Assembly: GCA_951406725.2 (NCBI GenBank)
Contig: OX597823.1
Coordinates: forward strand, 111,910,001-111,974,000
DNA: 64,000 nt
Source of the DNA: Octopus vulgaris
Lineage: Eukaryota
Reading direction: 5' to 3'
The position numbers were made by a program, and so were the translations under genes. Every line of letters starts with the position of its first letter. Positions within the stretch are counted from its first letter, which is position 1. The notes below the pieces were generated by a model. The model made no database searches, had not been told where the DNA came from, and saw nothing but the letters and a program-made list of their open reading frames with translations. Below are positions 3,435-50,710 of the stretch, piece after piece.

Positions 3435-4328
3435 GACTAATGGTTTCAGACTATATTTTAGCAAATAATATGATTTGCTAGGCAAAGTCTTCTTCAGCAG
3501 GTACACCTTAGATTAAACATATATACACGAGGCAATCCAGTATATGCCCCATGCTTATACATTCTAATTTTTCAAATCTACCATGCAAGTGCAGCTCCTT
3601 GTTGGCAATATATAAAAAATACCGGCTTTTCAATTCGAAAATTATCCAGAAAAAAATTATCAAAGGGTAATCAAAAATATTAGAAATTTCCATTACTAGT
3701 GGCCTAGTGTGTAAAAATTTAGTCAATGGACTATATATTATTCATATATATACAGTGTACATTTAAACATATAAGAGGCATCCATCATAGGACTCCTTGC
3801 ATGCTAGAGAGAACAGTTAAATTCCAAACCGCTATTAAGGATAATATTTCGAAGGAAATGAAAAATAAAAGCATTTATCATCTGGATAATTTTCAAATTG
3901 AAAAACCAGCATTTTTTATTTACTGCTGACAAGGAGCTGTGCTTGTGTGGTAGATTTAAAAACTTACAATGTATAAGCATGGGGTATATACTGGATTGCC
4001 TCATGTATATATGTTTAATCTAAGGTGTATCTGCTGAAGAAGACTTCGCTTAGCAAATTATTTTATTTGCTAAAAAAGTCTGAAACCATTGGTTCAGGAG
4101 TTAGATGGTAAATGTTTTTATTTTCCATTCCCTTCAAAATTTTATCCCTAATAGTGGTTTGGAATTTAACTGTTCTTTCTAGCGTGCAAGGTGTCCTATA
4201 ATGGATGCCTCTTATGTGTTTAAATGTACAGTGTATTTATATGAATAATATATAGTCCATTGACTAAATTTTTACACGCTAGGCCACTGGTAATGGAAAT
4301 ATCTAATATTTCTGATTACCCTTTGATA
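3435..4328. mobile_element. Hammerhead-bearing interleaved inverted repeat (A-B-A'-B'), PLE/retrozyme-like
   Basis: 3435-3650 is reverse complement of 3881-4094; 3655-3883 is reverse complement of 4103-4328; differences mostly transitions. Confidence 0.9.
4031..4097 (+). ncRNA. Type I hammerhead ribozyme motif with extended stem II
   Basis: ctg-CTGAAGA-agactt..ttagcaaat/atttgctaa..aagtct-GAAAC-cattg-GTT-cag; minus-strand twin ends GAAAC-catta-GTC at 3435. Confidence 0.75.
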
Positions 4329-5168
4329 TTATTAATTATTAATATATGTGTGTGTGTGTGTGTTTATATATATAAACACATATATATCTACTCATACATA
4401 CATACATACATATATATACATGTGTGTGTGTGTGTGTGTGTGTGTGTGTGTGTGTGTGTGTGTGTGTGTGTGTGTGTGTATACATACATATATATATATA
4501 TACATAAAGTTTCCTTGTACAAAATCTCCATCACAGCTACAGAAGAAGGGACATGACCCAGGGTGTCATGTAGTGCATCAAACTTGATTGCCAAGCAAAC
4601 TTCTTAATGATACTGCTATGCTTGCACTTGTTTTTGCTGTTGCATCTGTCTCAAAATAAATTACCCTTGTTGAGGAAAAATTAACATTGAGTACAATATG
4701 AATTTTTTTCTGACATATGTGTCTATTTCCCAATAAATTAACCAATCTATTTTTCTGGAAATAAAATTTCAAAACAAAGTGACATTTGGTAATTATATAT
4801 ATGAGACTTATTTCTTTCCTTTGTATAAAATGACTAAAAGAATTAGCATAAGAAAGGGCATATGGGTGTACACCACTGCCTTAGAAACACTCGTCCAACC
4901 CATGCCAGCATAAAAATGTGAATGTAAAAATGACAATGATGATGATGTAGCTAATTTATGCATCTATAAGTAAGTGTTTGTGTGTGTGTATATGTGTGCA
5001 TATGTAAATGTATGTGTGTATATATATCGACACACACATACACACACATACACTCACACACACATGTATATGTGTGTGTATATATATAGACACACAGACA
5101 CACACATACACTCACACACATATATATGTGTGTGTATGTTTGTTTATATGTATAGCTAGATAGATAAG

Positions 5169-46890: not shown

Positions 46891-49391
46891 ATATATATAT
46901 ATATGTATGCATATATATATACATACATTTATATATATATGTATGTATGTATATATATATATATATAAAATGTTTGTGTGTATCTATATATGTATGTATA
47001 CAGAGATGGGGAAGGTAAGAGAGGGGCAGAGAGTTAGAGAAATTACAAGTGTGTTCTGAACAAACAAAAACATACGATTCAAAAGTAAGCGAAGCAAGAA
47101 ATATGTACAAAAAAATATTCTGGTGTGTATAAATAATTTATCATCTTTAAAAGAAGCAGAAGGAATAAGGCTATGAAACTGTCTAAACAAGCAGAAACTG
47201 TATGCTTATATGATGTATATACATAGAAAGAATACATATCGCTACATGTTTGTATGCACATGCTGTATGTATTCATAGGCATGGAGGTACACAGACAGAT
47301 GTATATATATATATATATATATATACACACACATATATATATATGCATATATATATATGTATATATATGTATATATATATATATATATATATATATATAT
47401 ATATATATATATATATATATATATATATATATATATATATATATATATACACATATACATATATATACATATATATGTGTATATATATATTTGTACTTAT
47501 AAAGTAAATCTGTGTATGTACATAAATATATATATATATATATATATATATACATACATACATACATACATATATATATACACACATACACACACACAAA
47601 GAGAGAGAGAGAGAGAGAGAGAGAGAGAGAGAGAGAGAGATGAATAGATAGATAGACAGATAGATAGTCATGCAGAAATATATATCTATGTGCATGTATG
47701 AGTATGTGTATTTATGTGTATCTGCCTCTGTATTATATATTTTAAAGTATGAGAAATCTTTAATGCTGCATTTCTCAAAAAGAAAACAAAAAAGATATAT
47801 AGAAATAATAAAGATAAAAATTGAAAAGCATAGAAAAAAACAAGAACTTCAGAATAAGATATTTTGTGTTATTTTCTCTTCTCTAGTTTTTCACTCTGTT
47901 TATAGACTTGTCAAATCTTTCTAAGATTTATTTTCTGAAATGTGATAAACTATCAAATTTTCTTTGTTTTCTAATCATTTCCAATTACATTATCATTATT
48001 AGCTTCCCTCATGATATTTTTTGTTATTTTTTTCACCTATATATATATATATACATATATATATATATATTTCTATATATATGCATATAAACATGTTCTC
48101 ATACACGTACACAGACAAGAAACATAGGCATATAAGTGCACTCTCTTTTCCACCTATATATATATATATATATATATATATATATATATACATATACATA
48201 ACACACACACACATATATATATATATATATATATATATACATATAAACATGTTCCCATACACGTACACAGACAAGAAACATAGGCATCTAAGTGCACGTA
48301 TACTTAAATACAAATATTCATGTGTATGCATATGTATGTGTGTGTTTACGTGTATATATAGGTGAAGGCATGATTCGTAGTTAACATGGTCTTTTTGCAA
48401 CCATGTGCGTCTCTGTTTGATACTGCTGAGCAACAACTTGGGGAAGTGCACCATGCCATAAGTGTGAGTGGCGAATATCTTTGGAGTAAAATTTGGCTGA
48501 CAGAATCTCAATGGAAGGCCAACACTATACAAATACCACATAATATATATAACAAATATATAATTATATGTGTGTGCATGTATGTATATATATATATATA
48601 TATATATATGTATGTGTGTGTGTGTATGTATATATATATATATATATATATATATATATATGTACATGTATTTATATATATATACATATATGTATATATA
48701 TATATATATATATATAAATATATATACATATGTATATGTATACATATATATATATATGTACATATATATGCAGATATATATATATATACATATATATACA
48801 CACATATATATCTATGTACATATATATACACAGACACACATATATATAGATACATACATAAGTATATATGTATGTATTCTTTTATGGTTTCACTTTTTTC
48901 ATTCTTTCAGTCACTTGACGGTGGCCATACTAGAACACCACCTGAAAGTACTCATTCTGTTGGTCTTTTTTTGCTGAACCACTAAGTTACAAGGTTGTAA
49001 ACACACCAGCATCAGTTGCCAAGTGATCGTTGTGAGAGAGGTACAAACACAGATAATAAAGACAAATTCTTTAAACTATTTTTGGTGTTCCAAGCCTGAT
49101 AAATGTTTTTGATTCGGCTTGTGGGGAGAGCTATGTGACTGCAAAGTAGGTCTGATACAACAGTTTATATTTGTGGCATCTATGGAACGTTTTATTGTTT
49201 GGAGAAAAATAAAATGTTTTGGGGAAGAATGAAGTAGTAGGATAAAGAAGAGTAGATAGAGAAAGAGGAAGAGAATAAACCAAACTACATTTATATATAT
49301 ATATATATATATAAATTTAACATGGGAAGCAAAACAATAAATTGAACAATTAAATAGTTTAATCATTAAATGATAAGTTCGCACAAACAAA

Positions 49392-50710
49392 TGACAAATC
49401 TCATAAATTACAGATGTTTCAATTCTATTAATAAAAACGAGTTTTCCAAGAAAAATTAAATATCGTTTAAGTATAATGAGGTTTCATCCGATAGACATAT
49501 CTTCTTGAATATTTTACAAAAAATAACAATTGAAAGTTTTTATAACTGTTAATGCTATTCAAAAAATTGCTTTTTGAGAGAAAGCTAAATCATAAATAAA
49601 TAATCTAATTGAAATTTCGTAATATATATAATCGACTTAATTCGTCTGTCTGTCCTTGTTTGTCTCATCTGTGTTTAACCCCTTCTGTATAGTAAAGAAA
49701 TAGGTATATATTTATATAACCTGTATTTACTTTAAACTATAACTTGAATAAATTGTAAGCTTTTATGTAGATTTGAATTAATATATGAAGTAATGTTTTA
49801 CTGCAAATATATATACATGTGTATATGGAAATGTATATGCATTCTAATTGTAAATATATATACAGATGAATAAGTAAACTTCTGTATTTAAATATGCATG
49901 TATGTATATGTACATGTGTGTGTATGTATATATGCATAAATGGATAGATGTACATGTGTATATATAGATATATATAAATACGTCTATATGAATGTGTGTA
50001 TTGTGCTATGGAATCAGCTATAGAACTAGATACTAATAGATTTAAATTTAGGAATTTTCAAAATTTCAGCTAGATTATTCATTTATGATTAATCTTGCTA
50101 TCAAAAAGCGTTTTTTTTTTGTTTTGAATAGTGATAACAGGTATACAAATTTTCAATTACTCTTTGCTCTTTTACTCTTTTACTTGTTTCAGTCATTTTG
50201 ACTGCGGCCATGCTGGAGCACTGCCTTTAGTCGAGCAAATCGACCCCGGGACTTATTCTTTGGAAGCCCAGTACTTATTCTATCGGTCTCTTTTGCCAAA
50301 CCGCTAAGTGACGGGGATGTAAACACACCGGCATCGGTTGTCAAGCAATGCTAGAGGGACAAACACAGACACACAAACATACACACACACACATATATAT
50401 ATATACATATATACGACAGACTTCTTTCAGTTTCCGTCTACCAAATCCATTCACAAGGCATTGGTCAGCCCAAGGCTATAGCTGAAGACACTTGCCCAAG
50501 ATGCCACGCAGTGGGACTGAACCCAGAACCATGTGGCTGGTTAGCAAGCTACTTACCACACAGCCACTCCTGCTATTTTTCCTGATGTATTTAAGAAGAT
50601 ATACGTATCTGATGAAACCTCATTATGTTTAAACAATATTTTATCATTCTTGAAAAACTTGTTTTTATTAATGGAGTTGAAACAGCTGTACTTTATAGGA
50701 TGTGACATTA
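49392..50710. mobile_element. Fold-back element with ~230-bp arms and hammerhead; right arm split by SINE
   Basis: 49392-49622 is reverse complement of 50055-50158 joined to 50572-50710; CTGATGA (50609)-aacctcatta..taatggagtt-GAAAC-AGCT-GTA (50690). Confidence 0.8.
50160..50572 (-). mobile_element. SINE family A, full length
   Basis: Reverse complement of family consensus. Confidence 0.95.

Follow-up and report, generated by a model that had tools for sequence, protein, structure and literature searches.

Outward-facing hammerhead motifs in five octopus fold-back elements, probably head-to-head Penelope-like insertions

Five fold-back elements (E1 to E5) lie in the 64-kb stretch of DNA analysed here (below, the window). 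We consider it probable that each of them is a head-to-head insertion of a short Penelope-like retroelement that has no ORF (retrozyme type), with four families represented; the hammerhead motifs would point outward because they lie near the 3' ends of the elements and these ends face the flanks. The initial annotation had likewise preferred integration by a Penelope-like reverse transcriptase (RT) to MITE terminal repeats. This preference is partly supported: it is borne out for the E1 family by joints in sequencing contigs and fits E2, E4 and E5, whereas E3 is uncertain. The outward-facing geometry is likely the already published head-to-head Penelope footprint and not a new kind of element.

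Inverted repeats and hammerhead motifs in the window

At all five places where fold-backs had been annotated, sequence comparison within the window recovered inverted repeats, with arm identities of 397/440 (E1), 65/71 (E2), 129/141 (E3), 166/201 (E4) and 112/139 plus 75/90 (E5). Unmasked repeat finding was dominated by microsatellites. In the masked census of local inverted repeats (18 rows), E1–E5 are the sole non-SINE pairs with arms of at least 70 nt, the SINE labels, here and below, being presumed ones; hence the five elements were not hand-picked. Around the motif, E2 and E4 share homology over some 110 nt (66 nt, 76%, E 1.6e-4; z 8.8), whereas all other pairings are unrelated (z ≤2.6). 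The earlier view of five unrelated sequences thus holds for most pairs but not for this one, and by sequence similarity we assign the elements to four families, E2 and E4 sharing one. These two differ in arm lengths and centres, and their upstream parts are not homologous (z of −0.8 and 1.4), so a common 5' start point was rejected. The search for target-site duplications at the element ends yielded only low-complexity shared words, the test being weakened by TA-rich flanks; TA is possible at E3.

The motifs were assessed by a custom hammerhead score and compared with 580 background tiles (maximum 27). The outward readings of the right arms of E1 to E5 score 37, 28.5, 23.5, 30 and 34.5, respectively; four of them exceed all 580 tiles, while that of E3 is weak, as 1.7% of tiles reach its score. 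None of the ten inward readings rises above the background: each is either missing or reached by at least 20% of tiles. The annotated outward direction of all hammerheads is therefore retained for four right arms, with no inward case, but it is weak in E3 and most motifs are decayed: the conserved core and stems I–III are complete in one of the ten arms. The strict descriptor is passed solely by the right copy of E1 (0 in 20 shuffles). Rfam gives no hammerhead in the window at the gathering score, and none among the best 150 of 571 weak matches, all 150 of which are driven by microsatellites. Since the minus motif of the left arm is implied by the plus motif of the right one, polarity is one bit per element, and its significance, limited to this window, is weak: p 1/32 (one-sided) for 5/5 elements and 1/16 for 4/4 families. 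By score and strict descriptor, a type I hammerhead motif is present near the 3' end of these elements, weakly in E3. Additional motif-like sites at 322, 20609, 23057, 33203 and 37503 show no clear homology to the E1–E5 arms.

E2 (10666..10975) has arms at 10666–10736 and 10905–10975 with a spacer of about 170 nt. Its plus-strand motif (10862–10937) contains a 57-nt stem II region and one change in stem III; in the left arm just the 3' half is clearly recognisable (inner symmetry p 0.059). E4 (18589..19010) is a palindrome centred at 18791 without a spacer, with motifs at 18904–18979 (plus) and about 18604–18679 (minus). Its right arm outruns the left one by about 16–25 nt; the left end adjoins a truncated SINE, which clouds any reading of this difference as a 3' tail.

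E3 (11238..11609) is a near-perfect palindrome with a spacer of about 20–40 nt and TA-rich flanks. Its weak plus-strand motif (11518–11547) has two core mismatches, and an 11-nt deletion runs through the motif of the left arm. The marginal motif and the TA flanks speak against the main reading, as they also fit a Tc1/mariner-type MITE.

E5 (49390..50709) has its left arm at 49390–49617, a centre of repeat tail and microsatellites (49618–50060), and a right arm (50061–50158 and 50571–50709) interrupted by a SINE (50159–50570). The motifs are at 50609–50690 (plus) and 49409–49490 (minus). The stem II regions of E2, E4 and E5, 57–63 nt long, fold no better than shuffles and exceed the described helices of 6–8 bp, which also counts against the main reading. 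The suggestion that the fold-back centre is a cleavage-defined RNA 5' end finds no support in E3, E4 and E5 (p 0.2–0.98) and is marginal in E2 (p 0.022).

A separate hammerhead family is represented in the window by three solo (non-inverted) copies located in (TA)n: an element of about 200 nt at 59702..59938 on the minus strand and sister copies with decayed cores at 2474–2636 and 45673–45903, both on the plus strand (z 20–46 between copies). Pfam produced no Penelope RT or GIY-YIG match in 150 of the 288 candidate frames of the window.

The E1 element and its family

E1 has the order A (3436–3650), B (3658–3883), A' (3881–4093), B' (4103–4328), which rules out a nested fold-back. It consists of two differently permuted copies of a unit of about 455 nt joined 5'-to-5'. 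The minus copy (3436..3883, 448 nt, B' then A') runs from 8 nt past the cleavage site to the cleavage site and spans a tandem B'-to-A' junction at 3651–3657; the plus copy (3881..4328) is also 448 nt long, A' then B'. They meet 5'-to-5' through a 3-nt overlap (3881–3883), and no terminal inverted repeats bound the element. The type I hammerhead of the plus copy (4034..4094), the best preserved one, has a full core, a 6-bp stem II with an inner hairpin, a palindromic stem III and a 4-bp stem I. That of the minus copy (3435..3497) has an intact core but lacks the 3' strand of stem I, as the element ends there. With 43 differences between the arms over 440 sites, 34 of them transitions, E1 is unlikely to be an assembly artefact. 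Both arms carry letters that are rare in the family (at 4258, at most 1%, and at 4013 and 3980), which points to one source copy; an origin of the arms from two templates of different subfamilies is thus not supported.

The left flank of E1 is a decayed DNA-transposon remnant (2723..3435, plus strand) broken off at the E1 boundary. Its 5' end has no partner within the window, and no transposase match was found for it in Pfam or PDB; by a motif, it is putatively Tc1/mariner-like. The left end of E1 as a proof of cleaved-monomer templates was set aside, since a later deletion removing the 3' end of the flanking transposon suffices to explain it and no pile of loose ends at 4094 is listed.

Public contigs mapped on 3878–4338 at 80% likeness number 3412, 4346 and 3961 in three DNA-type runs (X1–X3), so that E1 belongs to a high-copy family, the one covered by the paralogue comparison. 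The majority letter is C both at 4094 (96–98% of summed depth) and at 4030 (98–99%); the former restores the GTC cleavage triplet and the latter extends stem I. Summed contig depth drops about 100-fold toward 3878, a hint only, as depth is not copy number. Run X19, whose RNA type is only guessed, has 347 contigs on E1, not counted as expression; the search for sequencing runs with 2900–4340 gave a best share of 0.35 and no RNA run among those listed.

Among the 15 E1-family joints listed (67 in all), seven are strand switches, at 14 different points. Their depth is 16–78 each, at the single-contig level; none is high-copy and none is at the 3' ends. In none of the seven do the partner positions coincide; they lie 38–301 nt from each other, and the joint positions suggest a head-to-head arrangement (polarity is not part of the mapping table). 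Each of the three DNA-type runs also contains tandem B'-to-A' joints, with linkers of several kinds; such pLTR-type junctions are seen in the E1 family and in none of E2–E5. Neither the high-depth fixed junction expected of a MITE nor E1's own junction (3881/4103) is among the 15 of 67 joints listed. Family copies end at 4273, where loose ends have unlike flanks (27 and 20 contigs, agreement 0.46–0.47), and some extend by 55 nt to 4328. The tandem junctions and the variable low-copy strand-switch joints support the E1 family as Penelope-like, not MITE-like.

Origin of the fold-backs

Penelope-like insertions carry an inverted 5'-truncated copy, as the initial annotation had stated, and an optional tail (PMC8557442). 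Among Penelope arrangements the head-to-head one is the commonest, permuted inverted halves also having been seen (PMC3846280). The PAc protein acts on AT-rich DNA, where it cuts both strands and extends them; it starts reverse transcription internally, hammerhead cleavage not being needed (PMC11167929). For the elements described here, an RT/GIY-YIG protein of Penelope type, acting in trans, would cut both strands of AT-rich DNA, and each DNA end would prime one cDNA. The two cDNAs, templated by RNA of a single source copy, would begin at a start site downstream of the hammerhead, halt at variable 5' points and then be linked 5'-to-5' with little or no microhomology. In this scheme the ribozyme would be a passenger and a polarity marker, not the cause of the inversion. 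We infer both the identity of the enzyme and that E2–E5 behave like E1. The near-symmetric centres of E3 and E4 run against the main reading, being unexpected from two independently truncated cDNAs.

These centres (no spacer in E4, about 20–40 nt in E3) fit the model of Arkhipova et al. (2013), in which a single nucleic-acid strand forms a hairpin at a short palindrome and serves as its own template, so that the two arms start out as exact mirror images. The rare letters common to both E1 arms fit such self-priming too, and rotifer Penelope is reported to have palindromes at its inverted junctions (PMC3846280). However, the E1 junction links the non-mirror positions 3881 and 4103, and the strand-switch joints listed for the family (7/7) link unequal positions. 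As a rival to the reading as a whole, self-priming is possible but doubtful; as for the priming step, two-ended priming and self-priming on one template appear about equally plausible.

That the elements are MITEs or DNA transposons of the fold-back kind, a hammerhead-like sequence being present by chance in, or captured by, their long terminal inverted repeats, is quite improbable. E3 and E4 are indeed compact palindromes, the former with a weak motif in TA-rich flanks, and recent activity in Octopus vulgaris is listed for Tc1/mariner and MITE families (PMC13282606). On the other hand, E1 lacks bounding terminal inverted repeats, tandem junctions are present in its family while a fixed high-depth one is absent among the joints listed, E2 and E4 differ in arm length, and a chance hammerhead would be needed separately in four unrelated families. 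Shared outer termini, proposed earlier as a sign of MITEs, proved a flawed test: because the RT starts at fixed sites, which determine the 3' ends of Penelope copies, head-to-head copies share outer termini too (PMC11167929). It is the variable inner junction, not the fixed outer ends, that separates the Penelope-like model from the MITE one.

Least probable is a later, RT-independent conversion of single-orientation hammerhead elements into palindromes by inverted duplication or repair of DNA: the E1 arms carry common rare letters, and the E1 left end coincides with the lost 3' part of the flanking remnant, a later rearrangement there, but this origin predicts both polarities and arms continuing into the flanks, whereas the arms of E2, E3 and E5 stop at the element ends and the masked inverted-repeat census found no palindromes of comparable length in the remaining window sequence.

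Double-stranded RNA and relation to known systems

The remark that read-through transcripts would form long dsRNA carrying a sense ribozyme is true as geometry, but the predicted fold of E2–E5 buries the motif (27–75 of its 30–82 nt inside the duplex) and most cores are decayed. If transcribed, the hairpins would be candidate ADAR substrates; the octopus lineage has exceptional hyper-editing and dsRNA potential (PMC5625713). It is conceivable, though unlikely, that ORF-less Penelope palindromes, with a density near one per 13 kb, constitute a major unannotated self-contained source of dsRNA in octopus-like genomes, with a role in hyper-editing like that of the Xenopus Harbinger repeat, and that permuted E1-like pairs preserve the trace of two-ended priming on retrozyme RNA that was multimeric or circular. 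Such a pair would consist of two copies of a single source, each exactly one unit long, one of them spanning cleavage site to cleavage site, and, if produced by two-ended priming, would settle the formation of Penelope inverted ends, the origin of the inverted arm being named as an open question in PMC8557442. How this arm forms can be studied in a high-copy family whose junctions are numerous and independent. Head-to-head joining itself is textbook for Penelope-like elements, and as geometry nothing is new; the practical point is that such stumps can be mistaken for MITEs, which outer termini cannot tell apart from them.

The palindromic Harbinger MITE of Xenopus (PMC5625713) is likewise a short self-complementary insert giving tight dsRNA if transcribed, but the E1 family differs from Harbinger-type MITEs by its variable junctions, tandem joints and absence of terminal inverted repeats. 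The elements resemble endonuclease-bearing Penelope-like elements with inverted pLTRs (PMC3846280; PMC8557442) in having a 5'-truncated partner inverted head-to-head, permuted inverted halves, partial tandems and AT-rich or microsatellite targets, and possibly also an optional 3' extension; in contrast to these, the inserts are 300–900 nt long, with no ORF attached, no target-site duplication seen and no autonomous partner in the window.

With the minimal type I hammerheads of metazoan Penelope-like elements (PMC4209133) they share a short stem I and a small palindromic stem III that would require a dimer, as well as pairs on opposite strands, reported there at 100–700 bp, most copies being solo and truncated. 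They differ in stem II regions of 41–63 nt in four of five elements, against helices of 6–8 bp, and in an A-U pair replacing the G10.1-C11.1 closing pair in E1, E3 and E5. That paper does not state the polarity of the pairs, and the word "octopus" is absent from its text.

Finally, the E1 family, with ORF-less units of about 300–450 nt, a type I hammerhead and tandem junctions, is similar to animal non-LTR retrozymes (PMC7229834; bioRxiv 10.64898/2026.07.22.740005). The retrozyme papers treat head-to-tail arrays ("inverted" is absent from the former and occurs in the latter only inside a reference title), whereas the pairs described here are inverted. In the same two papers, non-LTR retrozymes are proposed to be non-autonomous derivatives of Penelope-like elements.

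Inverted repeats and their setting

Self-comparison of the window recovered inverted repeats at all five loci claimed in the initial annotation, denoted here E1–E5 (3436-4328, 10666-10975, 11238-11609, 18589-19010 and 49390-50709). Their arms are 81–92% identical and differ mostly by transitions, hence these are old, real insertions. The five sequences are not all unrelated, as had been supposed: E2 and E4, with arms of 71 and 201 nt, form one family by alignment (z 8.8). The right arm of E5 is interrupted by a SINE. In a census of local inverted repeats, made after masking of simple repeats, E1–E5 make up all of the 18 rows except dispersed SINE-like pairs and two small hairpins free of hammerhead motifs, one AT-rich, of 72 nt (36929-37000), the other a near-perfect 34-nt palindrome (60171-60204). 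Local hairpins have a second source, without hammerheads, in the SINE-like inverted pairs that lie close together at 415-885 and 62980-63350.

Hammerhead elements in the window are not always inverted, since a ~200-nt hammerhead family has three solo copies, each inside (TA)n, at 2474-2636 (+), 45673-45903 (+) and 59702-59938 (−). Its motif is a classic minimal hammerhead with a bulged A, a G-C closing pair and a 4-bp stem II, and the core is intact only in the 59837-59861 copy.

The window is AT-rich animal DNA with many microsatellites and SINEs, and its repeats appear octopus-like. Among 150 of its 288 candidate reading frames, the sole Pfam match above the curated cut-off is a LINE-type zf-RVT fragment at 5641-6903 (−, E 1e-7). 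A C-terminal piece of a second LINE remnant, which we take to be RTE-like, lies at 14029-14417. A weak match to 7tm_2 (secretin-family GPCR) at 27776-28111 (+) falls under the cut-off (E 6e-4); apart from it, the scanned frames gave no hint of host exons. It is possibly a host exon, and the window would then be partly intronic.

Hammerhead motifs and their polarity

An Rfam search of the window found no hammerhead at the gathering score, nor among the top 150 of 571 weaker hits. The strict type I descriptor is passed by one arm of ten, the right arm of E1, with no matches in 20 shuffles, while looser descriptors are not above background (6 vs 1.4 for the core only, 2 vs 1.35 for another version). 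By a custom graded score, devised with these motifs in view and hence biased in their favour, the right arms of E1, E2, E4 and E5, read outward (sense on the plus strand in the right arm and on the minus strand in the left), exceed all 580 background tiles. The score of the E3 right arm, whose core has two mismatches, is matched by 1.7% of the tiles, and those of the left arms are reached by 0% to 8.6%; no inward reading rises above background. Thus the common outward polarity proposed initially holds above background for four right arms and only at the 1.7% level for E3. Counted as one bit per element, it is seen in five of five elements (p 1/32) or four of four families (1/16). In each arm the motif lies 15–235 nt in from the 3' end, and since the 3' ends face the flanks it points outward.

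In the left arm of E2 the 3' half of the motif is certain and the 5' half doubtful (p 0.059). The arms of E4 disagree at four of seven stem III letters. The stem II regions of the E2/E4 and E5 motifs (10862-10937, 18904-18979, 50609-50690) are unusually long, 57–63 nt.

E1, its family and the predicted folds

E1 is formed by the segments A (3436-3650), B (3658-3883), A' (3881-4093) and B' (4103-4328), in this order, the prime denoting the right half. The plus-strand copy reads A' then B', and the minus-strand copy B' then A', ending at the cleavage site. Each copy has 448 nt, about one ~455-nt unit, permuted differently, and the two are joined 5'-to-5' via a 3-nt overlap. Three TG/CA pairs stand opposite each other in the arms (3927-3947 and 3584-3604), which suggests that CpGs were once present and have since been deaminated, in each case through a C-to-T change on the plus strand. 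The left end of E1, at the cleavage site, may be the end of a cleaved monomer. It is no less likely that an ordinary partial tandem with an inverted copy was shortened afterwards by a deletion, since a decayed DNA transposon remnant (2723-3435; by motif, presumably Tc1/mariner-like) is truncated there too, and the end that would partner it is absent from the window.

The predicted folds of E1–E5 are far more stable than those of shuffles in both directions (8 to 30 shuffles each). This agrees in part with the suggestion that read-through transcripts would form long dsRNA carrying a sense ribozyme; in E2–E5, though, most of the motif is predicted to pair with the distant arm, which would keep it from folding as a ribozyme. 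In the predicted fold of E1, B pairs with B' and the motif is left free (2 of 61 nt paired). Either A can pair with A' or B with B', never both.

Among the elements, only the E1 plus copy (3878-4338) was used for alignment of public contigs, at 80% likeness; three DNA-type runs yielded 3412, 4346 and 3961 matching contigs. Most of the summed depth at 4094 (96–98%) has C, which gives the usual GTC triplet, and C is also the majority letter at 4030, where it extends stem I; therefore the master hammerhead of the family is better than that of the E1 copy. Seven strand-switch joints are present among 15 listed of 67 family joints (3937/4238, 3964/4224, 3972/4073, 4053/4113, 4089/4146, 4102/4194 and 4179/4217); no two of them coincide, and each has the depth of a single contig (16–78). 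The joint table does not hold polarity itself; we infer that they are head-to-head, as no listed strand-switch joint falls at the 3' ends. The shorter side of 3937/4238, 61 letters, is one more than tail-to-tail joining permits, a weak check. If they are head-to-head, the hammerhead is absent from both arms of two joints and present in only one arm of several others, hence the ribozyme would not be needed for inversion. The tandem B'-to-A' joint, with several linkers, is found in all three runs, and loose ends with unlike flanks accumulate at 4273. Judging from the contigs, this is what a retroelement that truncates at its 5' end and forms tandems would leave, and not what a fixed-body MITE (a short DNA transposon) would. 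The initial preference for a Penelope-like element (PLE) over a MITE is thus supported by variable strand-switch and tandem joints in the E1 family, the one family that the paralogue contigs cover.

The E1 arms were compared at 36 of 40 listed variable sites, leaving out two mainly from a run guessed to be RNA and two within an unaligned gap. At 4258, 4013 and 3980 both arms have letters that are uncommon in the family, and they match at 15 of 18 intermediate-frequency sites, so either a single source copy gave rise to both or they were homogenised afterwards.

Origin and relation to known elements

In vitro, a Poseidon PLE protein cleaves AT-rich DNA on both strands and extends each of them, with reverse transcription beginning at fixed internal sites and hammerhead cleavage not required (PMC11167929). 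Since both strands are cut and extended, we propose that both ends of one break would prime cDNA and the products would be joined 5'-to-5', producing the asymmetric junctions of E1 and the seven joints. For the symmetric centres of E3 and E4, self-priming (PMC3846280) as the source of the inverted arm is the better explanation. No TSD was identifiable at the ends of E1–E5, a check weakened by their TA-rich flanks.

Inverted 5'-truncated copies with a tail have been described, their formation being called unresolved by the authors (PMC8557442), as have inverted pLTRs (partial tandem repeats of PLEs) and very short 5'-truncated insertions (PMC8969392, PMC9977147); retrozymes are covered by PMC7229834 and bioRxiv 10.64898/2026.07.22.740005. 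Octopus has exceptional dsRNA potential and hyper-editing (PMC5625713). Active Penelope families of Octopus vulgaris are listed in PMC13282606, in which neither "hammerhead" nor "ribozyme" occurs. The part of the literature covered by the searches listed no study of cephalopod palindromes that bear hammerheads; the E1–E5 families may be catalogued in supplements or repeat databases.

The fold-back observation is real though partly mis-described, and the elements are best read as belonging to an already known kind. Head-to-head joining is the most frequently observed PLE arrangement and permuted halves in inverted orientation are also described (PMC3846280); E1 has both. In Schistosoma, dual minimal hammerheads lie on opposite strands 100–700 bp apart (PMC4209133), and the motifs in the arms of E1–E5 are likewise on opposite strands.
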